Virus genome (UHGV): UHGV-1377764
DNA from: a virus
Reading direction: 5' to 3' (one strand)
DNA length: 43,062 nt
Part shown: piece by piece, positions 9,628 to 30,307 of the stretch
How the letters are laid out: each line of letters begins with the position of its first letter
Position numbering within the stretch: the first letter of the stretch is position 1
Position numbers and translations under genes: made by a program
The notes under the pieces: generated by a model
The model's database searches: none
What the model was told of the DNA's origin: nothing
What the model saw: only the letters and a program-made list of their open reading frames with translations

Positions 9628-9640
9628 TATGATATAATAG
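9628..9640 (+). promoter_or_regulatory. extended -10 promoter motif TATGATATAATAG for rightward operon
   Basis: TGnTATAAT at 9630-9638; weak -35 TTACAC; same 13-mer recurs upstream of many + strand genes. Confidence 0.5.
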
Positions 9641-9661
9641 AAGCAAAGAGGAGGAGATAGA

Positions 9662-9865
9662 ATGAAAGATAATCTTATTGATCTATTAACACTTGCACTT
9701 AGTATCTTACTACTTGTAATAAGTATCATTGGTTTCGGTTACATTGCTATCTATTTAGGCATGAAGTTACCATATGAATTATTCCAACAAGGAGATTGGG
9801 GTTTTGCAATCGCACAACTAGTTATCGTGTGGAGCTGGTTATTATTAGGAGGTAATGGTAAATGA
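9662..9865 (+). CDS. small membrane protein
   Basis: 67 aa, two hydrophobic helices; RBS AGAGGAGGAG. Confidence 0.5.
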   Translation: MKDNLIDLLTLALSILLLVISIIGFGYIAIYLGMKLPYELFQQGDWGFAIAQLVIVWSWLLLGGNGK

Positions 9866-10023
9866 AAAAGATTGAAATCACGTTAGATGAAGAAACTGGT
9901 ATGTATTGTATTGACGAAAAAGTTAATGATAGTTATCAACAAGGAATACGCACCTATGATATTGATGAAGCCTTACTATATCTTGGGAATAGGTTGGAGG
10001 AATTAACTAATGAAAACAGATAA
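9862..10023 (+). CDS. hypothetical small protein (53 aa)
   Basis: ATGA overlap with upstream gene; RBS GGAGGTAATGG; translated by hand MKKIEITLDEETGMYCIDEK... Confidence 0.4.
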   Translation: MKKIEITLDEETGMYCIDEKVNDSYQQGIRTYDIDEALLYLGNRLEELTNENR

Positions 10024-10192
10024 ACAATTATTAGCACTAAATAAAACAGAACTGTTAAAAGAGTATCGTGAGTTAGAAAGTAAACTACAAAACGTAGCAA
10101 CTAATACTAAAGAACCAACACTTGAAGAAGCAATTGAGATAGTAAAGAATCATGACATGATTGTACGTAATAAACAACACTATAACTTCTAG
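10010..10192 (+). CDS. hypothetical protein
   Basis: 60 aa ORF, RBS GGAGGAATTAACTA. Confidence 0.4.
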   Translation: MKTDKQLLALNKTELLKEYRELESKLQNVATNTKEPTLEEAIEIVKNHDMIVRNKQHYNF

Positions 10193-10245
10193 GAGTAATG
10201 AATGAGTTATATGATATCAATACTAAATTAAAGGAGGTGTTTCAT

Positions 10246-10446
10246 TTGCCATATATGTACTGCAATCAAGAAGGATGTAACGAAACAGTTAAGCTACCAG
10301 CACAATACTGTGCCAAACATAAACGCTTAAAGGTACCTGATCCATTACCAGAACCTGAGTCAGTCAAACCGTTACAAGACACAACTCACTTAGACTTATT
10401 AGATAAAGCTAACAAGAGTATGAACACAAAGAAGACTACTAAATAA
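10246..10446 (+). CDS. small Zn-finger protein sharing CxxC-x6-LP-x2-YC-x2-H motif with N-terminus of the HNH endonuclease
   Basis: ORF 10198..10446; probable TTG start 10 nt after AAAGGAGG; YCNQEGCNETVKLPAQYCAKH vs HNH KCAVASCRSYVTLPDHYCDAH. Confidence 0.4.
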   Translation: MPYMYCNQEGCNETVKLPAQYCAKHKRLKVPDPLPEPESVKPLQDTTHLDLLDKANKSMNTKKTTK

Positions 10447-10647
10447 TAGAAATGAGGGTAATTAATATGATTAAACATCACATCACTAAATATAGAACAG
10501 ACGGAGAACAAAGAGTAGTATCATGGTTACAACTAAACCTGTTCAATCGTCAATACTGTTTTTCAATTAAAGACCTAACTATGAATCAAAAGACTACTAA
10601 ATAATGGTAGTCTTTTCTTCTATATAATAGAAGGAAGGAGTAACGCA

Positions 10648-11040
10648 ATGAGACAGCGCAAGTGTGCAGTGGCTTCATGTCGCAGCTATGTAACGCTACC
10701 TGATCACTACTGTGACGCACATCAAGGTCACAACAACAGTCAATATAATAAGCATGTTAGATATAATGATGACAACAAGAAGTATAGTGAGTTCTATCAT
10801 AGTACTCAATGGAGGAATGCACGTAAAGCTAAGCTAATGGAGCAACCACTATGTGAGGTATGCTTAGCACAAGGCAAGTATACCAATGCTGACATGGTTC
10901 ACCATAAGATAGAATTAAGAAGTCCAAACGGATGGAAATATAGACTTGATTTAAATAACTTAGAATCAATATGTTACAAGTGTCACAACAAGGAAGAGCA
11001 TAGCTACAGTTGGAAAAATAGAGGTAGGGAACAGCGCTAA
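10648..11040 (+). CDS. HNH endonuclease (packaging-associated, adjacent to terminase module)
   Basis: 130 aa; HNH core HHKIELRSPNGWKYRLDLNNLESICYKCHNKEEH; position immediately upstream of terS region as in HNH-dependent cos phages. Confidence 0.8.
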   Translation: MRQRKCAVASCRSYVTLPDHYCDAHQGHNNSQYNKHVRYNDDNKKYSEFYHSTQWRNARKAKLMEQPLCEVCLAQGKYTNADMVHHKIELRSPNGWKYRLDLNNLESICYKCHNKEEHSYSWKNRGREQR

Positions 11041-11092
11041 ATCAACAACCACGCAGTCAAAATTATTTTTAGGGAGACCCAAAATGTTTTTA

Positions 11093-11302
11093 CCCGCCCG
11101 CCTTTTTATAACGAATTAATCGCTGCCCCCTCTTCTTCGCATGAAATTCTAAAAATGAACTTTCAAAAACGCCCTTTTCCCCTCGTAAACGTGATTTAAA
11201 CCTGGTTTCTTGTGTTGAAAATCAAGGATTCATACTATATATAGTATGTTATTTCGCTTATACGATTTTTCCCCCTATAAACATGATTGAATCCTGGTTT
11301 CT
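11093..11302. repeat. HNH-terS intergenic region: GC-rich decamer CCCGCCCGCC, second GC island, and two ~35-nt direct repeats (ttttcccctcgtaaacgtgatttaaacctggtttct / tttttccccctataaacatgattgaatcctggtttct); candidate cos / terminase recognition region
   Basis: Read directly; repeats at 11176-11210 and 11265-11302. Confidence 0.45.
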
Positions 11303-11389
11303 CTACACAGGGTTCTTTTTATATGATATAATAGAGCTATATAAGGGAGTTAGCCGTTAACTCAAAAATAAAATAAGGGAGGTTATACA

Positions 11390-11572
11390 ATGCCTGCACC
11401 AAAACCAGTGTACGTAAAAGATTTATCAACTGGGCAGACACGCAAATTCAAATCACAATTCGCAGCAGATGATTTCTATAATAAGAAGCGTGGCTACTTT
11501 AAGGATATTAAAACAAAATTAGGCGGACGCAATCGTCACTTTGAAATTACAGAAGCCCCAAAGGAGGGTTAA
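11390..11572 (+). CDS. hypothetical basic protein
   Basis: 60 aa, RBS AAGGGAGG. Confidence 0.4.
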   Translation: MPAPKPVYVKDLSTGQTRKFKSQFAADDFYNKKRGYFKDIKTKLGGRNRHFEITEAPKEG

Positions 11573-11574
11573 AC

Positions 11575-11868
11575 ATGATTTTATATTATAAGGAAGAGGG
11601 ATACACTTCACTACCTATTGAACAAGTGGAATATAAGCGTATTGAAAATAAAACATATGCTCCTGAGTTTGTTATTGATGGTAAAGAATATGGGGTAGTC
11701 AACCTTATGGAGAGCTATAAAACCTTTGGAGAAGAAGGACACCACCATATGTTAGTAGCTGATGTTGTGTCAGGAGATACAAATTATTTTGCACAATATG
11801 AATTAACTATTGATTATGATGCTAGAGTAATTGTAATTACATTCATCAAAGAAATTAAGGAGGATTAA
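11575..11868 (+). CDS. hypothetical protein
   Basis: 97 aa, RBS AAGGAGGG. Confidence 0.45.
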   Translation: MILYYKEEGYTSLPIEQVEYKRIENKTYAPEFVIDGKEYGVVNLMESYKTFGEEGHHHMLVADVVSGDTNYFAQYELTIDYDARVIVITFIKEIKED

Positions 11869-11870
11869 TT

Positions 11871-12086
11871 ATGGATTTAAGTTATGAAGCAATATCAATG
11901 CGCGTAGATAATATGCTAGATGTAAACACAGGTGGAGAACTCATTAGTAGAGTTACTTATGGCTATCTATGTGGATATTTAAAAGCGTTACTTGAAGCAG
12001 AGATATTAAATGAATATGAATTTTCAAAATTAAAAGAAAAAGTGAATAAACATAAATACACCAACCCGCACTTAAAGGAGGAGTGA
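11871..12086 (+). CDS. hypothetical protein
   Basis: 71 aa, RBS AAGGAGGA. Confidence 0.45.
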   Translation: MDLSYEAISMRVDNMLDVNTGGELISRVTYGYLCGYLKALLEAEILNEYEFSKLKEKVNKHKYTNPHLKEE

Positions 12087-12090
12087 TAAC

Positions 12091-12555
12091 ATGGCAAGAC
12101 CACGAAAATTATTAAACGCTCAGAGTGGTAACTTGACCACTCAGCAACGAGAAGAGCGTGAGAAGGAGGAAGAAGTACTTTATAACTACGAAAAGTTAGA
12201 CTTTAGTTTTTATCCACCAGGTTTATTACCACAAGCATTCAACGAGTGGGATCGCATAGGAGCGTATGTAGGTGATTTGCCTATTTCTGAGTTAGATGTG
12301 AATACAGTCATTAGATATTGCAACTATAATTATCTATACGCTGAAGCAGTAGAGAAGGTGGCTCAAATGGGCGCTATTGACCCTGAGACAGGCAAAGCGA
12401 ACCCTTGGGTTAATGCCATGAACTCCTATTCAAAAGAGCTAAAAACAGCAACCAACGACTTAGGGCTGACAATCAATTCAAGAATGAAAATTATTCTTCC
12501 AGCTGAGAAAGAGAAAGAAGTGATTGATCCATTTGCGAAAATGTTTGAGGGATAA
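12091..12555 (+). CDS. terS: terminase small subunit, P27 family
   Basis: 154 aa; typical P27-family TerS features; RBS AAGGAGGAG; 1 kb downstream of HNH. Confidence 0.7.
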   Translation: MARPRKLLNAQSGNLTTQQREEREKEEEVLYNYEKLDFSFYPPGLLPQAFNEWDRIGAYVGDLPISELDVNTVIRYCNYNYLYAEAVEKVAQMGAIDPETGKANPWVNAMNSYSKELKTATNDLGLTINSRMKIILPAEKEKEVIDPFAKMFEG

Positions 12556-12626
12556 CCTACACAAAACTAATATTGTGTGCTATACTATGTATAGCAAATG
12601 AGTGGTAATCATTAGATACACAATTA

Positions 12627-12654
12627 TCACAAAAGTCGGATTTTGTGATATAAT
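12627..12654 (+). promoter_or_regulatory. promoter with overlapping 8-bp inverted repeat TCACAAAA-N6-TTTTGTGA and extended -10 TGaTATAAT
   Basis: Read directly; would drive transcription into the GC-rich element. Confidence 0.45.
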
Positions 12655-12660
12655 AATTAA

Positions 12661-12990
12661 TAGGTGGCATCTAATACACCTCTCGTGACACCGCAAGCGA
12701 GAGTATGCTAAAACGCGCTCTAATGAGTAGCCATGTGAGAGTTGGAGACCTTAGCTCACAGCGGTAGATAGTGGTTCACCACACTCCACTATAAAAAGGG
12801 TTGCTGTTGGAAACTGAACAGTCGTGGACGGCGCACGTAAACGACCGCTCGCTACAGTGTCTAGCGAATGCGTGATAGTATGACCCTCTTTGACGACAAG
12901 CACGACAAAGCAGTTAGCCACATAACAGAGGGCGTGGAAACCTGCAGATACTACAATCTCCCTAGTCTAGCTAACTAGGGAGTCTTTTTT
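12661..12990 (+). ncRNA. candidate structured non-coding RNA between terS and terL (GC-rich island, no ORF, own promoter and terminator)
   Basis: ~330 nt with many local helices (CTCTCG..CGAGAG, GTGAG..CTCAC, CGTG..CACG) in a 34% GC genome; longest ORF 35 aa without SD; ends in perfect terminator. Confidence 0.4.
12958..12990 (+). terminator. rho-independent terminator (9-bp stem CTCCCTAGT/ACTAGGGAG + T6)
   Basis: Read directly; immediately followed by extended -10 TGTTATAATAG at 12992-13002 and terL RBS. Confidence 0.75.
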
Positions 12991-13022
12991 ATGTTATAAT
13001 AGTATAAAAGGAGGATACATAT

Positions 13023-14795
13023 ATGTTTGATCCAGTACAAGATTATATAGACCTAATTGAAAAAGGATATGTTGAAGGTAAAAAATACATTGTTGAAGAT
13101 GGTAAATATAAGACAATTAAAGTTGACATTCGTGTAGGTAAGAAAATACAAAAAGCGATTGAACGCCATCAAAGAGAAGTAGAATTATCTAAACAGCCAG
13201 ATTATCCATATATTTATAGACCTGATGAAGCATTACCAGTGATTAAATTTATGGAAATGCTTCCTGATCCAAAAAGTCGTAAACCAATGAAGTTAGCAAC
13301 CTTCCAAAAATTCATCATTGGTTTACTATATGGTTGGCGCAAAAAGCGAGATAATACTAGACGTTTTAGAAAGGCATATATATCCCTAGCACGTAAGAAT
13401 GGTAAGTCGTTAATTGTGGCAGGTATTGCACTATATGAGTTTTTGTTTGGTAAAAATCCAGCAGCAAGCCGTCAAGTAGTCGCGGCAGCTAACACAAAAG
13501 AGCAGGCAGGAATCGTTTTCAGAATGCTTAAATCTCAATTAATGGCACTACGCAGCGTATCAAAAGAAGTGAAGAAAAGAACCACTGTGCGTAGATATGA
13601 TATTGAAGCGAGTGATGAATCAACAGTCAAGCCATTATCCAGTGACGCAGACACACTAGATGGCTTAGATGTTTTGTGTGGTATTCTAGATGAGTATGGT
13701 GAAGCTAAAGATACAAGTATTATTGAAGTATTAGAATCATCACAAGCCCAACAAGTGGAAGGTCTAATTTTAATGATATCTACAGCTACAAAAAACTTAA
13801 ATGGTCCTATGTTCACAATAGATTACCAATTTGTTGATAAGCTACTCAATGAAGAAGTGAAAGCTGATGCCTATCTAGCACTATGTTGGGAGATGGATAA
13901 TCTATCAGAAGTAGATGATGAAGCAAACTGGATAAAAGCCAATCCATTATTAGAAATACCAGAGGCTTATGAGTCAATGATGGAGCATAAACGCAACTCA
14001 CTTGATGAATATAAAGGTAAAATGGATTTATCAGGATGGCTTACAAAAGAAGAAAATTTTTGGGTACAATCATCTAAAGATAGTTTTGTAACCAAAGAAG
14101 AGTGGGATTCCGTCAAAGCATCCAATCGTTATGATATTAAGGGTAGAAAAGTATATATTGGGATTGACTTAGCCAGAACATCAGACATGACAGCCGTTTC
14201 ATGGATCATCCCAATAGAAGAAGAACACAAACTATTACTAGATACACATGGTTTTGTATCTTCAGTTGGTGGCATAGACCATAAACAATCAATTGATAAA
14301 ATACCATATAGACAGTATGAGTCAATGAACCTCATTCATATCTCACAACGTGAGGATGGGTTAATAGACACAGAAGAAATGTGTGATTGGATACGTGATT
14401 TTATAGATTATAATGACTTACAACTGGTAGGTATCTACTATGATCCATTTATGATGGATAAAGCTTTAATTAATCTAAGTAAGACCTATCCCAAAAAACT
14501 AATTGAAGTACCACAGAAAATTAACTATTTATCTTCACCAACCAGAGCCCTGCGTGAGTTAATTCGTAGAGGTGAAGTAATACACACAAATAACCCTTTA
14601 TTGAATCGTGCAGCATACAATGCAATGATTAAAGAGTACAATGACAGCGTTGCAATTGATAAGCAAATCAACAGGAATAAAATTGACTCACTTGACGCTA
14701 TAATAAATGCCATGAGTGACGCTCAATATCACGATTATGATGCACCAACATTGCAAGATTTACTAGATAGCGGTGAGTTTGGTTTTGGATACTAA
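13023..14795 (+). CDS. terL: terminase large subunit
   Basis: 590 aa; Terminase_1-like N-terminal ATPase and C-terminal nuclease regions; RBS AAAGGAGGA. Confidence 0.85.
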   Translation: MFDPVQDYIDLIEKGYVEGKKYIVEDGKYKTIKVDIRVGKKIQKAIERHQREVELSKQPDYPYIYRPDEALPVIKFMEMLPDPKSRKPMKLATFQKFIIGLLYGWRKKRDNTRRFRKAYISLARKNGKSLIVAGIALYEFLFGKNPAASRQVVAAANTKEQAGIVFRMLKSQLMALRSVSKEVKKRTTVRRYDIEASDESTVKPLSSDADTLDGLDVLCGILDEYGEAKDTSIIEVLESSQAQQVEGLILMISTATKNLNGPMFTIDYQFVDKLLNEEVKADAYLALCWEMDNLSEVDDEANWIKANPLLEIPEAYESMMEHKRNSLDEYKGKMDLSGWLTKEENFWVQSSKDSFVTKEEWDSVKASNRYDIKGRKVYIGIDLARTSDMTAVSWIIPIEEEHKLLLDTHGFVSSVGGIDHKQSIDKIPYRQYESMNLIHISQREDGLIDTEEMCDWIRDFIDYNDLQLVGIYYDPFMMDKALINLSKTYPKKLIEVPQKINYLSSPTRALRELIRRGEVIHTNNPLLNRAAYNAMIKEYNDSVAIDKQINRNKIDSLDAIINAMSDAQYHDYDAPTLQDLLDSGEFGFGY

Positions 14796-14807
14796 TACAA
14801 CAACTGA

Positions 14808-14836
14808 GGGTATGTTTAAACAGCATACCCTTTTCG
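14808..14836 (+). terminator. hairpin GGGTATG..CATACCC followed by T-rich tract; then extended -10 TGTTAAAAT
   Basis: Read directly after terL stop. Confidence 0.5.
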
Positions 14837-14888
14837 TCTGTTTTGTGTTAAAATAGAGTTAGAAATATCGCAAAAGGAGCGTGAAAAC

Positions 14889-15065
14889 ATGAAATTTGTT
14901 GCGGTTATTGTAGCTGTTTTGTATATAATTAGCGCAGTATTTATCGCTTTATCAGCATTTTTAGTATCAAATATCATAGGTTTATTCATCTGTGGTATAT
15001 TATTCATGATTCCAACAATTGTTTTATATCATGAAGCCACTAATTCAGGAGAAGGGAGGTCATAA
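14889..15065 (+). CDS. small membrane protein (58 aa) between terL and portal
   Basis: Hand translation MKFVAVIVAVLYIISAVFIALSAFLVSNIIGLFICGILFMIPTIVLYHEATNSGEGRS; RBS AAAGGAGCG; its 3' end supplies GGGAGG RBS for portal. Confidence 0.5.
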   Translation: MKFVAVIVAVLYIISAVFIALSAFLVSNIIGLFICGILFMIPTIVLYHEATNSGEGRS

Positions 15066-15068
15066 TAA

Positions 15069-16274
15069 ATGGGATTATTCATAAACAACGGAAACCCAGT
15101 GACCGAGCAACAATTTATTGATTATATCAACACTGGAACAGCTTACACTACCAATTTCACAGGTCTCAAAGCGCTGACAAACTCAGATATTTATACTGGG
15201 GTTAACATTATAGCTGGGGATATTGCTCAGAGTCCATTTAAACCAGCAGCTACAACCTCAGTAGATGATAGTTTGTTATACTTATTAAATAAAGAGCCAA
15301 AGGAAAATCAATCCCACTATACAATGATGTATGCAGTGGTTTCAAACCTTATTTTAACAGGAAACGCATATGTTCTCCTTCATAGACACAATGATGGTAG
15401 TGTGAAAGAGTTAGAATTTGTAGAAACACAACAGGTTAACGTCATTAGAGACCTTGTTACAGGCTTATACAGATATGAAGTTAACATGCCATATGGCAAT
15501 ATTATGTATAAGTGTAACCCACGTGATATTTTACATTTCAAATTAAGTACCACAGATGGCTGGCTAGGACGCTCACCATTGTTATCATTGAATGACGAAA
15601 TATCATTACAAACTAATGGACTAAAAGTGCTAAATAATTTCTTTTCAAAAGGTGTCTTCTCTGGGGGCATTCTTAAGTTATTAAATGGTACAGTCAACAA
15701 CAGTGCTAAGAAACAAATTAGAGACGACTTTGAAGCAGTGAATGGAAACGGTGGAGTTATCGTGATAGATGACTCACAAGAGTTCACTGATAATAAAATC
15801 AATACAGAAGTACTAAAATTGATCCAAGCCAATAAATTTAGTACACAACAGATTGCCAAAGTATTAGGAATTCCAGTAAGTAGGTTTGGTCAAGAATTGG
15901 TCAACTCATCTGACACCAGTCAGAATGACATCTATATTGCAAGTACTATTGCGATGTATGAATCATCTATCTGTGACGAGTTGAATCTAAAATTAGGAGT
16001 AGAGTTAGAGTTAGATTTATCTAAACTACGTCAAGATACAAAAGAAGATAGACTGCGTAGAATTGCAGAAGGAAGAGTGAAGTCTGAATTTGCACAAGCC
16101 TTAACGGTAAATGACGCACGTGAGTATCTTGGTTTTACTGAGATTGAAGGAGGAGAAGCCCTACTTGGTCAAACACCAGAAACAAGTGAAAATAAAACAG
16201 AACAGGATGTGAATGTTAATGAAGAAGAACTTGGAGATCAGAGCCCTACAGACACTGGAGAAGACAGAGGATAA
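15069..16274 (+). CDS. portal protein (HK97-type)
   Basis: 401 aa, position after terL, acidic C-terminus; overall similarity to Phage_portal family. Confidence 0.75.
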   Translation: MGLFINNGNPVTEQQFIDYINTGTAYTTNFTGLKALTNSDIYTGVNIIAGDIAQSPFKPAATTSVDDSLLYLLNKEPKENQSHYTMMYAVVSNLILTGNAYVLLHRHNDGSVKELEFVETQQVNVIRDLVTGLYRYEVNMPYGNIMYKCNPRDILHFKLSTTDGWLGRSPLLSLNDEISLQTNGLKVLNNFFSKGVFSGGILKLLNGTVNNSAKKQIRDDFEAVNGNGGVIVIDDSQEFTDNKINTEVLKLIQANKFSTQQIAKVLGIPVSRFGQELVNSSDTSQNDIYIASTIAMYESSICDELNLKLGVELELDLSKLRQDTKEDRLRRIAEGRVKSEFAQALTVNDAREYLGFTEIEGGEALLGQTPETSENKTEQDVNVNEEELGDQSPTDTGEDRG

Positions 16275-16770
16275 TGTAGTAGAAGGATATGCACTAAAAT
16301 TTAATAAAGAATCACGTAATTTAGGTGGATTTGTGGAAACAATTTCACCAGAAGCATTAGAAGGGGTAGACTTAACAGACGTACGGTGTTTCATGGATCA
16401 TGATTCTAGTAAACTATTAGGACGCACCTCAAGTGGTACACTGGAACTGAACGTAGATGCCATTGGGTTACATTTTCGTTGTGTACTTCCTGACACAAGC
16501 AATGGACGTGACGCAATGGAACTTGTAAAACGTGGTGACCTTAACCAATGCTCATTTGGTTTCACAGTAGCTAAAGACAAATGGATAAAAGGTAAAGACA
16601 TTATGAAACGTTCAATCAACAAAATTGGTTCATTATTAGAAATTTCTCTAGTATCAATTCCAGCATATGATGACACTGATGTACGAGTTGCTACACGCTC
16701 ACTAGAGGAAGCGGTTAATGAATTAGAGAAACAACGATTAGAAGTTGAATTGGAGCTGTTGGGCTTGTAA
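16213..16770 (+). CDS. prohead maturation protease (HK97 family, Peptidase U35/S78)
   Basis: 185 aa; motifs FMDHD and SFGF; overlaps portal 3' end. Confidence 0.75.
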   Translation: MLMKKNLEIRALQTLEKTEDNVVEGYALKFNKESRNLGGFVETISPEALEGVDLTDVRCFMDHDSSKLLGRTSSGTLELNVDAIGLHFRCVLPDTSNGRDAMELVKRGDLNQCSFGFTVAKDKWIKGKDIMKRSINKIGSLLEISLVSIPAYDDTDVRVATRSLEEAVNELEKQRLEVELELLGL

Positions 16771-16839
16771 TTTAAAGCCCACAACTTCTAATATCTATGC
16801 TATAATTAAAACAGAAACCTAGTGAAGGAGTGAGATTGA

Positions 16840-18078: not shown

Positions 18079-18154
18079 TATAAACAGCCACGAAGAGGGG
18101 TGGGGCTCATGCCTCATCTCTCTTTTATTATATGATAAAGGAGTGATAAAGTCA

Positions 18155-18493
18155 ATGTTAACAGTAGAAGAAATTAAAAATAATTTACGTATTGACTATG
18201 ATGAGGATGACACCTACTTAGAAATGTTACTTGGAGCAGCACAACTCTATATTTTAGGGAGTATTGAGGTGACGGTATTACCAGATGACCCAAAAACAAA
18301 CACACTAGTATTCATGCTTGTGTCATTGTGGTATGAAAACCGTGTACCAGTTACAAACGCATTACAACAACAAGTACCATTCACTATTACAGCAATGATC
18401 CATCAATTGAGGGGGTTAACTCATGGCGAATATCAAAACATCCAAGCTGAATCAGCGGATTACACTACTAGTGAAGACACGCTCACGAAATGA
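18155..18493 (+). CDS. head-tail connector (gp6-like) protein
   Basis: ORF from GTG 18143 trimmed to ATG (MLTVEEIKNNLRIDY) after AAAGGAGTG; typical gp6-like N-terminus. Confidence 0.6.
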   Translation: MLTVEEIKNNLRIDYDEDDTYLEMLLGAAQLYILGSIEVTVLPDDPKTNTLVFMLVSLWYENRVPVTNALQQQVPFTITAMIHQLRGLTHGEYQNIQAESADYTTSEDTLTK

Positions 18494-18758: not shown

Positions 18759-18760
18759 CC

Positions 18761-20823: not shown

Positions 20824-20866
20824 ATGTTATAATAGATTAAGAAAGCAAGCAAAAGGAGTGAAATGC

Positions 20867-23800
20867 ATGGCACAAGATAGACCTATAGGAAATATGAAAT
20901 TTGGCATTGGTTTTGATGGGTTTGATGAGTCTTTAAATACATTAGATAAATTAAACAAAGCCTTAAAACAATCAGAGTCAAGTATGAAGGCAACGATGTC
21001 AACATTTGATAAGGCTGGAGCCTCTGCTGAAGACTTATCACGCAAACAACAAGGATTAATTGATACTACAGAATTACAATCAAAGAAAATACAATTGTTG
21101 GAAAAACGTAGAGAGGAATATATTCAAACCTACGGAAAAGAATCCAAACAAGTGGCTAATGTTACAACTCAAATAAACACAGCTACTGTTAAATACAATA
21201 AGTTATCAAAAGAGCTTGACTCAACTAAACAAGCTTACATTCTAGCTAGTGCTGGCGTGGATAAATACGCTTCAGCAATCAAAGACAATGAAAAAGCAAT
21301 GAATGATGAAATTAAAGCATTCAAAGAAGCTGGAGATAAAGCTGGAGAGCTTGAAGCAAAGCAACGTGGACTAACAAAACAAGCAGAGTTAACAGAGCAA
21401 GCCATTGAATCACAAAAACAAGCAATAAACAAAATGGCGCAAGAGTTTGGTGAATCATCAACCCAAGTAGCACAAGCACAAGCTAAATTAGAAGACTTCA
21501 AACGTTCAGCAAAAAATACAGATACACGATTAGATGGTGTAACTAATGCACTATCTGAGTTAAAAAGAGAAGCTTCTAATGTAGACGATAAAGTAGATAA
21601 AGCTGGAGACGCACTTGAAGAAGCAGGTAAACAAGGTAATAAAGCGGAAGCTGGTTTTAAAAACGCAGCCAAAGAATTTAGTGCCTTAGCTACAGGTCTA
21701 GCAGTTGCCATATCAACAAAAGCTCTAGATATGGCAACTGAGGCAGCAGACGCTCTGAAAGAATCATTCAATGAAGTAGTGGAAGCCTCTAATAGATTTC
21801 AGGGCAAAATGGGAATTACGAAAGGTGAATCTAAGCAGTTCCTAAATTTTGCCAATGAGTTAGTAAAATCAGGAATGGTAGACTCATTGGAAGAAGCCCA
21901 AGAGGCTATTACACAAGTCTATCAAACAGCTGGTAAAAAAGTTACACCAGAAGGATTGAAACAATTAACTAAATACGCAATATCATTCAGTAAAACATTT
22001 GATACAGATGTAAATGAGACCATGCGTGGTGCGTCACGTATGATGGAAAACTTTGGGATTAGTGCTGAAGAAGCTTTTGACTTACTTACAGCAGGTGCAC
22101 AAAATGGACTGAATCAATCAAACGAGTTAGCAGATAACATGGCGGAATACTCTCAATTATTTGGTCAAATGGGGTTTACAGCAGAGGAAACATTTAGTTT
22201 ACTTGAAGCTGGTCTAGACGGTGGAGCATATAACTTAGACAAAGTAAATGATTTAATCAAAGAGATGGGGATATCATTAACAGACGGACGTTTTGAAGAA
22301 AACGCAGATATGTTCAGTGAATCAACAAGAAACCTGTTTAATGAGTGGAAAAACGGTAAAGCAACTCAGGGTGCAGTAGTTAAGAGTATGATGAATGACT
22401 TTTCCAATATGGAAGGAGGATATGCTTCTCTAAATAAAGCGAGTACAGTCTGGTCTGCCTTAGGAGAAGACAACTCACTTAAAGTCATCAAAGCAATGGC
22501 AGGAGCTAGTAATTCCTTTGGAGAAACTAAAGGAAGCGCAGAAGATCTGAATAACACTATGACTAACACTACAGCATGGGATGCTTTCACCAACGGAGTG
22601 AAAGGTACGGTCAATTCAATTGCTATCTGGGCACAAGAGTTTACTGGTGGGATGACACAACCAATTGAAAATTTCTTCAATAAAACATTGCCTAATGCCA
22701 TGAAAACCCTTGATTTCTTTTTCTTTTATGTTGAAAACTTCATCTCAAACTTAAAAGATATTATTGGTAAAATGTGGAGCGGAAAAGATACAATAAATGA
22801 CCAACATATTTTAAATATGATGGGATTCAGCTGGGAAAGTATCTGGGCTCTAGATGATTTCATCACACAGGTTAAAGAGAAAGGTGAAGTATTAACTCAG
22901 TATATTAAAGGTTTCTGGCAACTGTTTACTGGTGATGAAGCTACTCAAATGCAAGGATACTCCTTACTACGTTCATTAGGGATGAGTCAAGAAGACATAG
23001 AAGTATTAGAAACAGCTAAAGAAAATGTTAAGACTGCTCTTGATTCTGTTAAAGAAACTATTGTAAGACTTCTTGAAGACGGCTTGGACAAAATGATTCA
23101 AGCATGGAAAGACTTAGTTAAGATTTGGGAGGAGGTAATTGCACCTGATTTATTACCTCTGTTTGAACAGTTTGCTGGATGGCTCAGTCGTATCACAGGT
23201 TACTTAGCAGACATTAGTGGCGCACTAGATAACTTTGGTGGATCAGGAAAACGCAACAGTGACATTCTTATTAATGCATTCACTATATTATGGGAAACAC
23301 TGAAAATAAAACTTGGGCTCATCATGGCAACAATAGAAACAACCATGATTATCATTTCTAGTACAATCAAGATTTGGAGTGATATTTTCAAAGGTGATTG
23401 GGAAGGCGCTTGGAATGGTATTAAAGGTATGTATGATCGCATATCTGATTCAATCAAAACCAATTTGAAAAACACATTCTTAGGTGATATGATTAAAAGT
23501 ATTGAAGACTGGAATATTAGAACAACAAAGGCGTTCACTGGTTGGATTACTGATATATCTATTAAGTTTGGTACATGGCTAACCAACATGAAGACGTGGT
23601 TCAAAAACTTACCAGGAGAATTAGCTGAGAAGTTTAAATCAGGAGGAAGTACATTAGCAAACGCCTTTAAATCTGTATTTAATGGAGCGCTTAAAGCGAT
23701 AGGTAAACCAGTGAATGGTATTATCAAGGGGGCTTCATGGGTACTTGAAAAATTGGGCGCAGAACCTCTGCAAGAATGGGACGTACCGCAATACGCCACA

Positions 23801-25351
23801 GGTACTCCAAAAGGTGGACATCCAATCAATGGGCCAATGATGGTTAATGATGGACGTGGAGCAGAAACAGTTATCACACCAGATGGTAGAGCCTTCATAC
23901 CTAAAGGACGCAACGTTGTTCTAAACGCACCAAAAGGCACACATGTCTTGACAGCAGAAGAAACAGCACAACTTCAAGGTTCAAAAGCGCCTCGTTATCG
24001 TTACAAAAAAGGTACTAACTTCTTTGGTAACATGTGGGACAGTGTGAAAAATGTTGCTGGTAATGTAGGAAACACACTTAAAAATGTAGTAGGTGACGTG
24101 TGGGATTTCATTTCAGACCCTGGGGCGTTAGCTAGGAAAGTACTTGGTGGTTTAGATGTGTTAGGTGGATTGACAAAATATCCATTAGAAGTAGGTAAAG
24201 GCATACTATCTAAAGCCACAAGCGCACTTACTGAAAAAATCACTGGGTTGTTCTCATCAGGTAACTTGGATACATCTATAGGAACAAATGGTGTCTATAA
24301 ATATTTAGCAGATGTTGCTAAGTCTGTGATGAAGAAATTCCCAGGTTTCATGGTAACTAGTGGGTATAGACCAGGTGACCAGTATTCACATGGTAAACGT
24401 AATGCCATTGATATTGCATTGCCAGGTGTCACAGGAGGCTCACCTAGATACACAGAAGCAGCCAACTATGCGTTTGACAAATTCGCTTCCAAGATTGGTT
24501 ACGTAATCACTAATGGTAAGGTTCGTGACCGTTCAGGACAATCAGGTCAACCAGCAACTGGTGCATGGGAGCCATGGCCCCCTGGAGACCACTACGACCA
24601 CGTGCATTTGAACGGTATAAAAGACCCACAAAACACGCAAATATCAGGCGATAGCGTGGGAGGCAGTGGTGTAGAAAGATGGCGTAATGTAGCCATTAGA
24701 GCATTGAAAATGACTGGTCAATACAGCGCAGGAAATCTAAATGCGTTACTAAATCAAATGCGTACAGAGTCAAATGGTAATCCTAAAGCGATTAACTTGT
24801 GGGATCCAAACGCTATGAAGGGTACACCATCAAAAGGATTAATGCAGGTTATTGACCCAACCTTTAGACAATACGCAATGCCAGGGTTCAATAGTAATAT
24901 CTATGACCCATTATCTAACATTCTAGCATCAATCAGATACGCACTGGCAACCTATGGTTCATTAGGAAATGCATATCGTGGGGTTGGCTATGAAAATGGT
25001 GGAATCATCACCAAAGAACACTTTGCAAGACTTGGAGAAGGTAACAAGGAAGAAGTAGTCATTCCACTAACTGGCTCTGGTTTAAAACGTTCAAGAGCTA
25101 TGCAACTACTGGCATATGCCAATGAGAAACTTGGTAAAAACAATGATACACCTACACCATTGAGTGGTAATAATTCTAATCAAGACTTAACCATCTTGAT
25201 TAATTTGATGCAACAACAAAATGAACTCTTAATGGCGTTACTTGATAAGTCAGCTACGATTGAACTTGATGGACGTAAGGTAAGTAAAGAAATTACAAAG
25301 TATCAAGAATCAGAAACACGTAATAGAAATAGACAAATGGGATTAATATAA
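20867..25351 (+). CDS. tape measure protein with C-terminal M15-like peptidase and SLT lytic transglycosylase domains
   Basis: ORF 20786..25351 trimmed to ATG (MAQDRPIGN) 6 nt after AAGGAGTG; coiled-coil N-half; YSHGKRNAIDI...DHYDHVH (LAS/M15-like Zn motif) and ESNGNPKAI...GLMQV (SLT motif). Confidence 0.8.
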   Translation: MAQDRPIGNMKFGIGFDGFDESLNTLDKLNKALKQSESSMKATMSTFDKAGASAEDLSRKQQGLIDTTELQSKKIQLLEKRREEYIQTYGKESKQVANVTTQINTATVKYNKLSKELDSTKQAYILASAGVDKYASAIKDNEKAMNDEIKAFKEAGDKAGELEAKQRGLTKQAELTEQAIESQKQAINKMAQEFGESSTQVAQAQAKLEDFKRSAKNTDTRLDGVTNALSELKREASNVDDKVDKAGDALEEAGKQGNKAEAGFKNAAKEFSALATGLAVAISTKALDMATEAADALKESFNEVVEASNRFQGKMGITKGESKQFLNFANELVKSGMVDSLEEAQEAITQVYQTAGKKVTPEGLKQLTKYAISFSKTFDTDVNETMRGASRMMENFGISAEEAFDLLTAGAQNGLNQSNELADNMAEYSQLFGQMGFTAEETFSLLEAGLDGGAYNLDKVNDLIKEMGISLTDGRFEENADMFSESTRNLFNEWKNGKATQGAVVKSMMNDFSNMEGGYASLNKASTVWSALGEDNSLKVIKAMAGASNSFGETKGSAEDLNNTMTNTTAWDAFTNGVKGTVNSIAIWAQEFTGGMTQPIENFFNKTLPNAMKTLDFFFFYVENFISNLKDIIGKMWSGKDTINDQHILNMMGFSWESIWALDDFITQVKEKGEVLTQYIKGFWQLFTGDEATQMQGYSLLRSLGMSQEDIEVLETAKENVKTALDSVKETIVRLLEDGLDKMIQAWKDLVKIWEEVIAPDLLPLFEQFAGWLSRITGYLADISGALDNFGGSGKRNSDILINAFTILWETLKIKLGLIMATIETTMIIISSTIKIWSDIFKGDWEGAWNGIKGMYDRISDSIKTNLKNTFLGDMIKSIEDWNIRTTKAFTGWITDISIKFGTWLTNMKTWFKNLPGELAEKFKSGGSTLANAFKSVFNGALKAIGKPVNGIIKGASWVLEKLGAEPLQEWDVPQYATGTPKGGHPINGPMMVNDGRGAETVITPDGRAFIPKGRNVVLNAPKGTHVLTAEETAQLQGSKAPRYRYKKGTNFFGNMWDSVKNVAGNVGNTLKNVVGDVWDFISDPGALARKVLGGLDVLGGLTKYPLEVGKGILSKATSALTEKITGLFSSGNLDTSIGTNGVYKYLADVAKSVMKKFPGFMVTSGYRPGDQYSHGKRNAIDIALPGVTGGSPRYTEAANYAFDKFASKIGYVITNGKVRDRSGQSGQPATGAWEPWPPGDHYDHVHLNGIKDPQNTQISGDSVGGSGVERWRNVAIRALKMTGQYSAGNLNALLNQMRTESNGNPKAINLWDPNAMKGTPSKGLMQVIDPTFRQYAMPGFNSNIYDPLSNILASIRYALATYGSLGNAYRGVGYENGGIITKEHFARLGEGNKEEVVIPLTGSGLKRSRAMQLLAYANEKLGKNNDTPTPLSGNNSNQDLTILINLMQQQNELLMALLDKSATIELDGRKVSKEITKYQESETRNRNRQMGLI

Positions 25352-25369
25352 ATAATTAGGAGTGATTAC

Positions 25370-27463: not shown

Positions 27464-27494
27464 AATATTAGGGGGTTGTACACCCCCTAATATT
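27464..27494 (+). repeat. perfect 12-bp-arm palindrome AATATTAGGGGG-TTGTACA-CCCCCTAATATT followed by extended -10 TGTTATAAT
   Basis: Read directly; no T-tract, so a stabilising stem-loop or protein site rather than a strong terminator. Confidence 0.6.
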
Positions 27495-27526
27495 GTGTTA
27501 TAATAGTAACTAGGAGGTGTATACTA

Positions 27527-28933
27527 TTGACTGAATTTTATGTAACAGACCGTAATTTTAATCTACAGACTATCATATCAACAAATGGAAATACACGTTA
27601 TCATCTTAGCAAAGCACATGAAACAACAACTCTAAGCACAAGCTCAAAAACCTTACAATTAGATGTGCGTTTTTCAAAAAATGATTCTTTGGAATTAAGC
27701 AAACAGTGTGCTGTTGGTAACTATATTTTATATAAAGATTCTAAAAATAAAACAAGTGTCATGGTTATTATGAAAGCTAGTCATAACCCAGTAACTGGTA
27801 TCCGTAGTATGGAACTAGAGAGTGGATCACTTGACTTGCTAAATGAAACGACTGGCCCATATGATCCAAAAACTCAAAGAACAATTGCTGAGTATATAAA
27901 CTACTTCATCTATGATAGTGGATTTGAAATTGGTATAAATGAAATACCTAATAGTAAACGTGCGTTAAGTTGGGATGGTAACGCAACAACACTAGAAAGG
28001 GTGCTGTCAGTAGCTACTCAATTTGAAGTTGAGTTGGAGTTCAGATTTGAATTAACTGGTAATAATGTAACACGTTGGTTTATTGATATACGAAAAAAAG
28101 TGGGTGATGATACCTCTCATAAATTATATGTAGACAAAGATATCCATTCTATTACAACGGAAACAGATTTATATCAGATGTACAATGCAAGTAAAGCAGA
28201 AGGCAGTGTTATTGAGGGACATGATAAACCACTAACGTTAAAAGGCTATAAATGGACAGATCCTGATGGAAGATTTTACTTAGATGAAACCACAGGTATT
28301 ATACATGACAAAGCCAATATAACACACTGGCGTAGACCAAACTCAAACAATGGGTATTATCTTCAACTAAAAACATACACTGCTAATACACAAAAAACAT
28401 TATTAGACTCAGCTATTGCAGATCTTAAAAAATATTCTACACCTATCGTTAATTACATTGTAGATGTTGCCAATGTTCCTTTTTCTTTAAATGTTGGAGA
28501 TACATTATATATTGTAGATGAAAACGAAAAACTATTTTTAAATAGTAGAGTACAAATCATTGAATATGATTTTTTAACAAAAGAAACAGTTTTGACATTA
28601 GGAGATTTTGTTCAAGTACCAAGTGGACTTAGTGACATTATGCGTGACTGGGCAAATGAGTTTAATAATAAAATAAAAGAAAATGTACCTTATACTGTAA
28701 ATATCACACAATCAGAACCATTTTTCGTTAATGGAGAGGGTACAATAACGTTAACCGCTACTATTTTGCAAGGTAATTTGGATGTAACGTCATCGTTTCA
28801 TGATTTTAAATGGATACGATATAAATTAGATGGTACGCTAGACAGTGATTTCACTGAATCAGGAATATCTATAACTGTAACTGCTGGCTCTGAATTGCGT
28901 TATACGTATGAAGTTTCAGCTAATAATGATTAG
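27527..28933 (+). CDS. tail-associated lysin / baseplate hub (Tal)
   Basis: 468 aa, TTG start after AGGAGGTG, position after Dit. Confidence 0.6.
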   Translation: MTEFYVTDRNFNLQTIISTNGNTRYHLSKAHETTTLSTSSKTLQLDVRFSKNDSLELSKQCAVGNYILYKDSKNKTSVMVIMKASHNPVTGIRSMELESGSLDLLNETTGPYDPKTQRTIAEYINYFIYDSGFEIGINEIPNSKRALSWDGNATTLERVLSVATQFEVELEFRFELTGNNVTRWFIDIRKKVGDDTSHKLYVDKDIHSITTETDLYQMYNASKAEGSVIEGHDKPLTLKGYKWTDPDGRFYLDETTGIIHDKANITHWRRPNSNNGYYLQLKTYTANTQKTLLDSAIADLKKYSTPIVNYIVDVANVPFSLNVGDTLYIVDENEKLFLNSRVQIIEYDFLTKETVLTLGDFVQVPSGLSDIMRDWANEFNNKIKENVPYTVNITQSEPFFVNGEGTITLTATILQGNLDVTSSFHDFKWIRYKLDGTLDSDFTESGISITVTAGSELRYTYEVSANND

Positions 28934-28943
28934 GAGGTACACA

Positions 28944-29888
28944 ATGGCAATTGTTAATGGAAAAACAGTATTAAACAATATGATAATTGAAACATCTACA
29001 GGAACAGTTTTTATGCAGGAGGAGGAACCGCCAACATTTAAAGATGGTGACGTATGGTTCAAGTTAGTTAATGGTAAAGCTACAAATGCGTATAGTGCTG
29101 AAAATGGACAATGGGTGGAAGTCGCATTTGATAGTAACATTATTGCAGAAAATATCGTTGGTAAAATCATCACAGGTGGGGAAATCAACGGAACAACTAT
29201 CAATGGTTCTGAATTTACTAACGCCTTTAACAATGTTGTTGCAGGAATTAATGTTGTGAGTGATGGTAAAACATCTATTTCAAAAGGTGCGTTATCTGAA
29301 ATAGCCTCTTATTATCTGGTAAACACAGAAGGCGAACGCTTATATTTATTCGCAGACAATGAAGCATACTTGACTAGAGGGTCTCTGGAAGTTAGACAAA
29401 AACTATACAATGAAGCAGGTACTATAACGAGTGAGAGTAGCGCAAAACTTTCTGGTGGATTACTACAATTGAACTTAAGTGATAGCACTGGTACGTATAA
29501 TGGCGTTTTAGATGCTAAGTTATTAGAGTCAATGAGTGGTATTAAGCAACGGATTGTAACACTTCCAAATACAACAAACTACGCTAACGGTCGTATTGAG
29601 TATAGACGTTTTGGACAAATAGTGACAGCTGCTATTAAGTTTGACAGATTAACCGCAAACGGATGGGTCACATTATCAAACATTCCTAACGGGTATAGAC
29701 CATATAGTTATATTGATTCCTCAACCTATCTAGCTTCAACGGGTAATCGTGGTTCATTTGTTTCGTTATATACTGATCCTTCGTTCAACTTTATTTATAT
29801 TCCATCAGTACCTGGAGGGTCAACAAGTACTGAGAGCTATCAAGGATCAGTAACTTATTTTACTAATCAAGCTTGGGCTTTAGCATAA
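28944..29888 (+). CDS. putative tail fibre / receptor-binding protein
   Basis: ORF 28908..29888 trimmed to MAIVNGKTV after TAGGAGGT; Gly/Asn/Thr-rich. Confidence 0.45.
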   Translation: MAIVNGKTVLNNMIIETSTGTVFMQEEEPPTFKDGDVWFKLVNGKATNAYSAENGQWVEVAFDSNIIAENIVGKIITGGEINGTTINGSEFTNAFNNVVAGINVVSDGKTSISKGALSEIASYYLVNTEGERLYLFADNEAYLTRGSLEVRQKLYNEAGTITSESSAKLSGGLLQLNLSDSTGTYNGVLDAKLLESMSGIKQRIVTLPNTTNYANGRIEYRRFGQIVTAAIKFDRLTANGWVTLSNIPNGYRPYSYIDSSTYLASTGNRGSFVSLYTDPSFNFIYIPSVPGGSTSTESYQGSVTYFTNQAWALA

Positions 29889-29906
29889 TAAAAAGGAGAG
29901 ATATTA

Positions 29907-30152
29907 ATGATTGAAATTTATGAAACTTTAGACAATATGAATGAAGAAGGTAAATATTATAATGTTTATATTGTACCAGAAAGCTTGCCAGTTAGTTCTC
30001 CATTCACAAGATTAAAGCCAGCCTCTTCACTAATTAATCCAAGATTTGATTGGTTAAAAGGAGAATGGGTTAGTGACGAAGTTAGCGTTCTTAATAAGCG
30101 TATTACAGACTTAGAAAAAAGAATTAACGAACTAGAAGAACTCTCTAAATGA
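29907..30152 (+). CDS. small tail-fibre-associated protein with C-terminal coiled coil
   Basis: 81 aa, RBS AAAGGAGAG. Confidence 0.4.
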   Translation: MIEIYETLDNMNEEGKYYNVYIVPESLPVSSPFTRLKPASSLINPRFDWLKGEWVSDEVSVLNKRITDLEKRINELEELSK

Positions 30153-30197
30153 GAGTTCTTTATTTGCTTTTAAACGCATAACTACCCAACTATCAAA

Positions 30198-30231
30198 ATT
30201 TAAAGTGCTTAGAATGCTCGTGAGAGACACA
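30198..30231. repeat. 34-bp direct repeat copy A (atttaaagtgcttagaatgctcgtgagagacaca) upstream of lysis cassette
   Basis: Identical except 1 nt to 31987-32020. Confidence 0.8.
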
Positions 30232-30307
30232 CTATTTCGCTTATATAGATGTTATAATGATTACAGACCTAGGAAACGAGGTGATAAATGAATAGGAGTG
30301 TTTTGCT

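Follow-up and report, generated by a model that had tools for sequence, protein, structure and literature searches.

We analyzed the virus genome UHGV-1377764, a stretch of 43,062 nucleotides (nt) that is referred to as the window throughout, with regard to an extended -10 promoter element recurring between its packaging, structural, and lysis genes and to the hairpins that precede most copies of this element. A megablast search with positions 9000-21000 matched 69 Enterococcus phage records, the best of which was EF36P3 (~91% identity over 89% of the query), and IME-EFm1 and IME-EFm5, the latter being the type of the genus Efemquintavirus, were also found as relatives. By these matches, the window is identified as the ~43-kb genome of a siphophage of Enterococcus faecium that belongs to the IME-EFm5 group (Efemquintavirus), with a G+C content of 34.6%.

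Based on the open reading frame (ORF) map and the annotation of relatives, a rightward block contains the packaging, structural, and lysis genes in the order small ORFs, HNH endonuclease, terS, terL, a 58-amino-acid (aa) membrane protein, portal, protease, major capsid, connector genes, major tail, chaperones, tape measure, tail genes, two holins, and endolysin. Two leftward blocks carry replication and nucleotide-metabolism genes, and the GC skew flips its sign at the same borders as the gene blocks. ARAGORN detected neither tRNA nor tmRNA in the window, and Rfam gave no match in the whole window at the gathering threshold. No transcript maps for this phage group were found in the literature searched.

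For comparison, we used 8 complete relatives (77-92% terL identity) and 42 IMG/VR loci found via the major tail protein. Each junction was anchored on its downstream gene, and counts refer to unique orthologous sequences. The relatives are close kin and the conservation counts are non-independent events; most weight was hence placed on replaced hairpins and on the gain and loss of cassettes. Coordinates of the elements were re-read from the sequence itself, and the shuffles used for motif counts and hairpin folds preserved dinucleotide composition.

A recurring extended -10 element and its hairpins

A first-pass annotation had proposed that an extended -10 element recurs in the rightward block, and this was borne out: the element is enriched, intergenic, and co-oriented with the genes, and the coordinates proposed for it were right within 1 to 2 nt. 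Its Gram-positive form, T(A/G)TGnTA(T/A)AAT (TRTGNTAWAAT), was found 14 times against 1.7 expected, and TGNTATAAT 18 times against 4.8 expected, counts that no shuffle reached; TGWTATAATAG had 6 exact matches against 0.19 expected (reached by 0 of 100 shuffles). The rightward block contains 10 TRTG copies, all intergenic and all co-oriented with the downstream gene, in a block of which only ~7% is intergenic. Nine sites fit TRTGnTATAAT and one fits TRTGnTAAAAT, and P30250, with GATG replacing TRTG, is the eleventh site of the block. Among the 12 gaps longer than 40 nt in this block, 10 carry the conserved element, and the gaps at 10605-10647 and 18079-18142 carry a terminator only. The -10 ends 22-57 nt ahead of start codons bearing a Shine-Dalgarno (SD) sequence, with a spacing conserved per junction. 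The list given previously had missed members at 12576 and 12644 (terS-terL gap), 39050-39060 (minus strand), and 42610-42620 (plus strand).

The absence of a good -35 hexamer, which had also been claimed, applies to about half of the sites, whereas the others carry a conserved partial -35, nnCACA, 17 bp upstream. In nine genomes, 100 of the 111 rightward TRTG promoters have the hexamer TATAAT, 61 (about 55%) have nnCACA at exactly 17 bp upstream (AACACA, TACACA, CCCACA, TGCACA, CACACA, or ATCACA), and none reaches 5/6 matches to TTGACA.

Conservation at orthologous junctions was nearly complete (Table 1), with the extended -10 in every unique sequence at five junctions (19/19 to 43/43) and in 32/33 and 20/22 at two others. 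The motif was absent from three control junctions, i.e., upstream of the portal gene (0/18), after the capsid gene (0/36 and 0/37 in two runs), and at two tail junctions; the terminator-only junction after the capsid gene thus acts as a negative control. The trailing AG of the motif is found in this phage only and is not conserved. The -10 of P30250 reads TATACT in the three most distant relatives.

Most motifs of the rightward block sit 0-12 nt behind stable hairpins, as had been described. The hairpins named in the first-pass annotation are real, with energies of -12 to -21 kcal/mol and z scores of -3.8 to -6.2 against shuffles. The placement does not hold for 9630 and 19521, which have no adjacent hairpin (the fold upstream of P19521 at 19470-19519 was not significant, z -0.9), nor for 30250, whose nearest terminator lies ~90 nt upstream. 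A hairpin followed by a U-tract, characteristic of intrinsic terminators, was found at 10588, 12958, 14806, 18092, 20141, 20788, 30135, and 31923. The earlier list of terminators had missed the terminator-only sites at 10588-10616, 18092-18125 (after the capsid gene), and 31923-31955. The window contains six or seven composites of a hairpin-terminator and a promoter, and further ones occur in relatives. The automated count of T residues after minimum-free-energy hairpins was confounded, as RNAfold pairs upstream A-runs with the U-tract; a consensus scan, which flags the hairpins preceding the motif as terminators, and inspection of the sequence were used instead. At these junctions, terminators, though no promoters, are already annotated in the GenBank entry for phage 9184.

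The pairing of terminator and promoter was further substantiated by comparison, with the extended -10 near-universal at orthologous junctions and the hairpins either covarying or replaced. At P20825, 7 of 13 hairpin pairs are changed on both sides, and 91.5% of the cells are paired, values reached by 0 of 500 shuffles. At the P12992 junction, all 19 relatives have a hairpin, of which 11 are distinct; the arms alternate among CTCCCTAGT/ACTAGGGAG, CCCACTAGT/ACTAGTGGG, and CTCACTAGT/ACTAGTGAG, and EF36P3 has an unrelated hairpin at this place. In some relatives, unrelated replacement hairpins still lead via a T-tract into TRTG, and in most orthologues 5-9 T residues follow the hairpin. At P11324, TACACA (11304-11309) falls within the loop and 3' arm of the hairpin, and distant relatives keep the -35-like ACACA but not the hairpin.

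Whole cassettes also vary in their presence. Between tape measure and Dit genes, a hairpin, a T-tract, and T(G/A)TGnTATAAT occur in 36 of 40 unique relatives, with at least eight unrelated hairpin sequences, whereas the junction in the window (25352-25369) has only 18 nt and no cassette; compared with IME-EFm1, the cassette looks like it was lost by deletion between two ATATAA repeats. In KEN22 (locus 13467-14241), a homing-endonuclease gene splits the P20825 cassette precisely at the boundary of hairpin and T-tract/promoter; this insert carries its own terminator hairpin, now fused to an unchanged TATGTTATAAT. The same layout was found in AUEF3, a phage of Enterococcus faecalis from a different genus (Efquatrovirus). 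Because the hairpins covary or are swapped for unrelated ones, the cassette layout itself is under selection, and the hairpins behave like elements selected for shape rather than for sequence.

Table 1. Coordinates of genes, promoters, terminators, and candidate RNAs in the window. Energies are in kcal/mol; numbers in parentheses after -35-position elements are their first nucleotides, the elements lying 17 bp upstream; the last column gives relatives with the extended -10 at the junction.
Feature	Position	Strand	11-mer	Composition	Relatives
Leftward block	1-9169			Replication and nucleotide-metabolism genes	
Rightward block	9662-31922	+		Packaging, structural, and lysis genes	
P9630	9610-9638	+	9628-9638	TACACA (9610)-17-TATGATATAAT; no adjacent hairpin	
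Intrinsic terminator before HNH gene	10588-10616	+		z -6.1	
P11324	11289-11332	+	11322-11332	Hairpin 11289-11315 (-12.1, z -3.8) with TACACA (11304), T-tract, TATGATATAAT	32/33
terS	12091-12555	+			
terS-terL gap	12556-13022	+		467 nt; two promoters (next rows); ends at terminator 12958-12982	
First class B promoter right after terS	12558-12586	+		TACACA-17-TGTGCTATACT	
Second class B promoter right after terS	12644-12654	+		TGTGATATAAT	
P12992, upstream of terL	12958-13000	+	12990-13000	Terminator 12958-12982 (-13.7, z -4.3; 3' arm at -35 position), TCTTTTTTA, TATGTTATAAT	20/22
terL	13023-14795	+			
P14846, upstream of 58-aa membrane gene, portal, protease	14806-14854	+	14844-14854	Hairpin 14806-14832 (-14.2, z -3.8), U-rich tail, TGTGTTAAAAT	20/20, always TGTGTTAAAAT
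P16798, upstream of major capsid	16757-16806	+	16796-16806	Hairpin 16757-16783 (-11.9, z -3.8; without U-tract), CCCACA (16778) at -35, TATGCTATAAT	19/19
Major capsid	16840-18078	+			
Strong terminator after major capsid	18092-18125	+		-24.3, z -5.1; no promoter behind	
P19521, upstream of major tail	19501-19529	+	19519-19529	AACACA (19501)-17-TATGCTATAAT; no conserved hairpin	43/43
Major tail	19569-20135	+			
P20193, upstream of tail chaperones	20141-20201	+	20191-20201	Terminator 20141-20166 after major tail (-13.5, z -5.5; ends 24 nt before motif), TACACA (20173)-17-TATGATATAAT	28/28
P20825, upstream of tape measure	20788-20833	+	20823-20833	Terminator 20788-20818 (-21.2, z -6.2), TTTTTA, TATGTTATAAT	
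Tape measure	about 20860-25351	+			
P27496, upstream of 468-aa minor tail gene	27464-27504	+	27494-27504	Hairpin 27464-27494 (-19.8, z -4.7; weak U-tract, tail UAAUAUUGUG) abutting TGTGTTATAAT	
P30250, upstream of holin genes	30135-30258	+	30248-30258	Terminator 30135-30161, conserved 50-nt upstream region, GATGTTATAAT	
Terminator closing rightward block, after endolysin	31923-31955	+			
Leftward block	31998-43062			Replication and nucleotide-metabolism genes	
Class B promoter on leftward strand	39050-39078	-		TACACA-17-TATGATATAATAG; nearly identical to P9630 and P20193	
Candidate ~57-nt small RNA unit	42610-42685	+		Class B promoter TATGCTATAAT (42610-42620) inside leftward block	
Class A promoters, -35 starts	42593, 41026, 38281, 37489, 33723, 9229, 4796, 998	-			
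TGWTATAATAG matches	9630, 11324, 12992, 20825, 27496	+			
TGWTATAATAG match	39058	-			

P9630 is the first rightward promoter of a divergent control region and lies upstream of the small ORFs and the HNH gene. The terminator at 10588-10616 is followed by TATATAAT (10621-10628), which is not conserved in relatives and was rejected as a member of the family. The promoter on the leftward strand at 39050-39078 lies upstream of a 230-aa gene (38312-39004; phrog_6479, no assigned function).

Several side observations concern the flanks of the first promoters. Between the leftward and rightward promoters of the divergent region (9170-9660), six copies of an iteron, TAGTGACAAAATGAC, stand in both orientations at 9245-9591, whereas in IME-EFm1 this place is taken by another repeat, TTTTGTGTACC. 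Such a difference suggests an operator or origin module that can be exchanged and that is paired with a binding protein of its own. A probable cos site was placed near 11130, inside the 349-nt gap after the HNH gene, from the starts of related sequences: many IMG/VR contigs, and also the record of IME-EFm1, start ~190 nt upstream of P11324, the first promoter rightward of this site. Also in this gap, at about 11085-11310, are a stretch rich in G+C and a direct repeat of 36 nt (11175-11210 and 11267-11302) that ends in CCTGGTTTCT. Two further candidates were discarded. CTGGTTTM, upstream of P9630 and P11324, is enriched (16 versus 3.3 expected), yet 13 of the 16 copies are coding, and its distance to the -10 varies (-28, -33, and -38); it was not taken as an operator. 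TATTTCGCTTATA is a 13-mer common to the gaps 11041-11389 and 30153-30307, and in 43 kb chance alone should give one exact repeat of that length.

Promoter classes by strand and candidate RNAs

The extended -10 promoters (TRTGnTATAAT) are designated class B here, and the TTGACA-type promoters of the leftward genes class A. The leftward cassette reads TTGAC(A/T)-N14-TGnTA(T/A)(A/T)(C/G)T, followed by TAATTCATAAnnTAAnnGGAGGAA. In nine genomes, TTGAC[AT]-N13-15-TGnTAnnnT was found 7-15 times per genome on the leftward strand and never on the rightward strand (2 copies in the partial EF36P3 record), and AUEF3 has 12 leftward copies versus 0 rightward. TRTGnTAWAAT occurs 10-15 times on the presumed late strand versus 0-2 times on the other in the nine genomes and AUEF3. 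Of 95 class A promoters, only one has TATAAT as its -10 hexamer, and TATACT is the commonest form. At 38281 and 4796, the class A promoter lies within a terminator hairpin whose 3' arm contains the -35. Besides, we observed that leftward class A promoters have a common leader, TAATTCATAAGATAAAGAGGAGGAA, after the -10.

Single-nucleotide maps of transcription start sites in E. faecalis and E. faecium show tgnTAtaaT at 96% and 98% of them and a canonical -35 at only ~4% (PMC7724050), and TRTG at -17 to -14 is a recognized Gram-positive extension (PMC2613000). The phage sites agree with a sigma-A extended -10 of the TRTGn type, as TG or TRTG stands directly ahead of TATAAT and the sites are co-oriented with room for an SD-bearing 5' untranslated region. 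Because tgnTAtaaT without a -35 is the norm at E. faecium start sites (PMC7724050), the motif is, judged by its sequence, the host's ordinary sigma-A promoter type. The need for an activator, which had been argued from the missing -35, is consequently not supported.

In the Listeria phage CKA15, promoters were mapped by ONT-cappable-seq and timed by RNA-seq; the early ones read TTGACTT plus ATGxTATACTTAA and the late ones TDTGCTATATTA without a -35 (PMC12282133). Since this timed pair of motifs matches that of the window, the rightward promoters are, by analogy, probably late or delayed.

Ribosome-binding sites also differ by strand. In nine genomes, GGAGGAA precedes 188 leftward versus 32 rightward start codons, GAGGAGGAA 66 versus 1, and GGAGTG 5 versus 47; in AUEF3, the counts for GGAGGAA are 28 versus 2.

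For a candidate small RNA (sRNA), predicted to span 42626-42685 of the plus strand, the promoter and the leftward TTGACA promoter with a -35 starting at 42593 stand back-to-back. The RNA consists of a hairpin (42628-42644; loop UUCCUCC), a linker CCUCUCG, and a terminator (42654-42677) with U5, and its predicted fold (5' hairpin, linker, and terminator) has -21.1 kcal/mol with a z score of -5.5. The unit was found in both genera (AUEF3, 18698-18790, plus strand) in 20 distinct versions, with at least four unrelated terminators and six differing, fully paired stems (AGGGA/UCCCU, GGGGA/UCCCU, GGAAGU/ACUUCC, AAGGUG/CACCUU, AUGCUG/CAGCAU, and AGGGUA/UACCCU), whereas the loop ends in (U/C)UCCUCC in all of them, UCCUCC being invariant. 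No Rfam family matched it. Since UUCCUCC is the exact complement of GGAGGAA, the SD typical of leftward genes, we put forward the hypothesis that this sRNA may act as a selective anti-SD regulator. Duplex energies of the sRNA with all early versus late leaders did not differ significantly (p = 0.37; 0.03 after subtracting 16S pairing), and the SD-type counts by strand are the stronger evidence for the idea. A scan of IMG/VR for TCCTCC..CCTCCTCTCG was set aside, as the matches listed were mostly unrelated chance ones.

On its plus strand, the terS-terL gap lacks any ORF reaching 40 aa, and with 49.5% G+C its core is richer than the genome as a whole (34.6%). One or two TRTG promoters stand at the start of the gap, the first of them conserved in all nine genomes, and in some relatives an HNH gene lies within it. 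In an alignment of homologues, 95% of the cells are paired and 7 pairs are changed on both sides (0 of 500 shuffles), values that are somewhat inflated as the structure was derived from the same alignment. The gap matched no Rfam family, and a PreQ1 match in 12540-13030 (Rfam E<=1) was dismissed as sub-threshold (17 bits versus 39). Structure and composition suggest that the gap holds a gene for a structured noncoding RNA of ~300-400 nt, at about 12590-12990 of the plus strand.

Taken together, the two strands might follow matched codes in Efemquintavirus and Efquatrovirus, an early-late switch working without a phage sigma factor through promoters and ribosome-binding sites, with the sRNA masking or destabilizing early mRNAs; we regard this as speculative and rather doubtful. 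Leftward, presumed early genes would combine TTGACA, TGn, and a weak -10 with GGAGGAA, and rightward, presumed late genes would combine TRTGnTATAAT without a -35 with GGAG(G)TG. The loop UUCCUCC of an sRNA made from a late promoter would hit the early SD while polymerase moves to the terminator-fused late cassettes.

Interpretation of the terminator-promoter cassettes

We consider it likely that cassettes of a host-type extended -10 and a terminator divide the late genes into small insulated units. The recurring element would be a Gram-positive extended -10 (TRTG at -17 to -14, then TATAAT) read by the host sigma-A polymerase without a -35. It is the sole promoter type of the rightward strand, and at most junctions it is joined to the intrinsic terminator that ends the unit before it. 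This fusion is tightest ahead of terL, the portal unit, the tape measure gene, and the tail gene, where the terminator has its 3' arm at the would-be -35 position and the DNA of the U-tract makes up the promoter spacer, running directly into TRTG; an upstream transcript would stop ~20-25 nt short of the next start. The outcome would be a chain of short insulated transcription units instead of a single long late operon, with the output of each unit set by its own promoter (with or without the conserved partial -35 nnCACA), by read-through of the terminator in front, and by the terminator at its rear.

The two forms of the promoter are distributed unevenly over the block. CACA-type promoters precede the small-ORF units (9630 and 11324), capsid (16798), major tail (19521), and chaperones (20193), and the -35-less type with a terminator 3' arm in its place precedes terL (12992), the portal unit (14846), tape measure (20825), and a tail gene (27496), in relatives also Dit. 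Strong terminators with no promoter or a spaced promoter follow the capsid gene (18092-18125) and the major tail gene (20141-20166). From this arrangement, it is plausible that the layout tunes the ratios of structural proteins, the abundant ones having better promoters and being walled off from low-copy neighbors.

Several points weigh against the insulated-unit interpretation. Initiation, termination efficiency, and timing are all deduced from sequence, conservation, and analogy. The label of a terminator-promoter pair fits only 6-7 of 10 sites, as 9630, 19521, and 30250 have no adjacent terminator and the hairpin at 16757 has no U-tract, and a simple terminator scan overall gave 13 hits versus 9.0 in shuffled sequence (standard deviation, 3.0), not significantly above expectation. 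Furthermore, plain constitutive sigma-A promoters would transcribe lysis and structural genes from the start of infection, and the strict strand split of the two classes suggests an extra switch that the explanation does not supply.

Such a switch is the core of the alternative that the extended -10 sites are late promoters requiring a phage-made change of RNA polymerase, which we hold to be possible but not the probable explanation. A small early protein might disable sigma region 4, as do T4 AsiA, Thermus P23-45 gp39, and Staphylococcus G1 gp67, which would silence the TTGACA-dependent leftward promoters and free polymerase for -35-independent ones; otherwise, a dedicated activator or sigma factor might be involved. 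In 10 genomes, the two classes exclude each other by strand, the leftward one having a perfect -35 with a poor -10 and the rightward one a perfect -10 with no site at 5/6 of TTGACA, and a contrast between -35-dependent and -35-independent promoters is what sigma-4-directed factors exploit (PMC3950348; PMC2613000). In CKA15, the same two motifs are timed early and late, and an anti-sigma factor was proposed there (PMC12282133). The nnCACA element at -35 and the 36-nt direct repeat upstream of P11324 could, by their positions, be binding sites.

The regulator itself, however, was not recognized. Among 38 distinct small ORFs on both strands, nothing matched sigma, anti-sigma, ArpU/RinA/Ltr, or Alt-like proteins (PHROGs 29, Pfam 20), the only matches being to DUF1140, DUF1351, TM2, HNH, methyltransferase, and kinase-like families, and phmmer searches with 8 proteins against PDB sequences revealed no regulator homologue. 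For the late sigma factor or activator that the first-pass annotation had suggested looking for among the early genes, there was thus no homologue among the small ORFs in PHROGs, Pfam, or PDB sequences. The ORFs at 9662-12086 gave no Ltr-type regulator (Pfam E<=0.01, PHROGs), their matches being to HNH or function-unknown families. No AsiA/gp39/gp67 homologue was detected by sequence searches alone, such proteins being small and fast-diverging. Besides, the motif equals an ordinary host promoter, which implies recognition without a factor, and the hairpin-type sites have no conserved upstream sequence to which an activator might bind.

It is unlikely, in our estimation, that the cassettes serve mainly as portable recombination modules, i.e., crossover points for the insertion, deletion, and swapping of genes like the promoter-early stem-loops (PeSLs) of T4-type phages, in which a stem-loop terminator and a sigma-70-type promoter mediate modular shuffling (PMC2839356, PMC4122927). 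Clean gain and loss of whole cassettes (tape measure-Dit, 36/40 relatives but not the window), the KEN22 insertion exactly at the P20825 cassette, differing hairpins joined to an identical promoter at one junction, and HNH genes in the terS-terL gap of some relatives would all fit. Nevertheless, no inserted gene was found between two homologous copies of a cassette, the KEN22 insert included, the shared sequence is only ~15-25 nt, and the neighbors of most cassettes are conserved core structural genes whose order is fixed, not hyperplastic regions.

That the hairpins instead serve the stability or processing of a single long late transcript, by 3'-end protection or as RNase sites, with the TATAAT boxes minor or silent, is very improbable. 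In Firmicutes, hairpins at the 3' ends of mRNAs stabilize transcripts, and the hairpins at 16757 and 27464 have weak or absent U-tracts. In most orthologues, though, a T-tract of 5-9 residues follows the hairpin; the 11-nt motif is almost always retained while the hairpin sequence turns over, which would make no sense for a silent promoter, and the hairpin-only junction after the capsid gene never has the motif (0/37 unique sequences). Finally, an origin of the matches by chance in AT-rich intergenic DNA is refuted by the shuffles, which never reach the observed counts, and by the comparative data (strand bias of 10-15 versus 0-2 in ten genomes, and near-complete conservation at orthologous junctions with absence at control junctions), although TATAAT-like strings are common at 34.6% G+C and the internal TGNTATAAT matches at 25976 and 26350 and the antisense TRTG match at 5576 look like chance. 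The last of these, a copy of TGTGTTAAAAT at 5576-5586 (plus strand) inside the leftward primase gene, could be either chance or an antisense promoter.

The finding is real, conserved, and useful, but not surprising, as the layout is already known from other phages. It overturns no knowledge, since the promoter type is the host norm and composite terminator-promoter cassettes are known from T4-type phages. Phages of the IME-EFm5 type are under development as therapy against vancomycin-resistant E. faecium, and a map of promoters and terminators shows sites for the insertion or deletion of genes that spare neighboring units; in addition, the cassettes offer compact ~50-bp terminator-promoter parts for Enterococcus engineering. 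It also raises the question of whether sigma-less small siphophages time their genes by a polymerase switch between -35-dependent and extended -10 promoters.

Relation to systems already described

Among named systems, the PeSLs of T4-type phages come closest (Arbiol 2010, PMC2839356; Comeau 2014, PMC4122927). In both, an intergenic stem-loop terminator or attenuator, a host sigma-70-family promoter, and the SD of the next gene occur in many copies per genome, neighboring units are insulated, and there is an association with insertions and deletions. PeSLs, however, have full early promoters (AT-rich UP element, -35, and -10) and lie in hyperplastic regions around ORFans of Gram-negative myoviruses, whereas the cassettes described here have an extended -10 with the -35 absent or partial, a terminator that overlaps the -35 and spacer positions, and, in a small siphovirus of a Gram-positive host, core packaging and structural genes as neighbors. 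With regard to PeSL-type recombination, we observed polymorphic presence of cassettes and a homing-endonuclease insertion but no insert flanked by two cassettes.

A near-identical dichotomy of promoters is found in CKA15, a P100-like phage (PMC12282133), with TTGAC(T/A) plus (A)TGnTATACTTAA early and T(D)TGCTATA(T/A)T without a -35 late, both read by the host sigma-A polymerase throughout. CKA15 is a myovirus of the 130-kb class with predicted sigma and anti-sigma genes and experimental timing. In contrast, the phage studied here has no recognizable regulator, its classes are segregated by strand, its late class is fused to terminators, and its timing is assigned by analogy.

Late genes on -35-independent extended -10 promoters are also known from Thermus phage P23-45 with gp39 (PMC3950348) and from T4 with AsiA (PMC2613000), in which a factor on sigma region 4 switches off -35-dependent promoters. 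Unlike in those cases, the extended -10 is a major host class in Enterococcus, and a sigma-4 factor would therefore silence the phage's own early promoters and not most host genes.

The temperate phages with Ltr-type activators (RinA/ArpU/LtrA-C; PMC3753634) share the host group and the gene order from terS and terL through lysis. They use a single activator-dependent promoter upstream of terS and one long operon, with ltr just upstream, whereas in the window at least 10 conserved promoters and at least 8 terminators lie within the block, no Ltr homologue was found, and the phage is virulent. With respect to the Gram-positive "-16 region" TRTGn and the E. faecium consensus (PMC2613000; PMC7724050), the motif is identical, T-R-T-G-n-TATAAT with the -35 usually absent; the phage-specific features are that the motif is systematically fused to terminators and confined to one strand.

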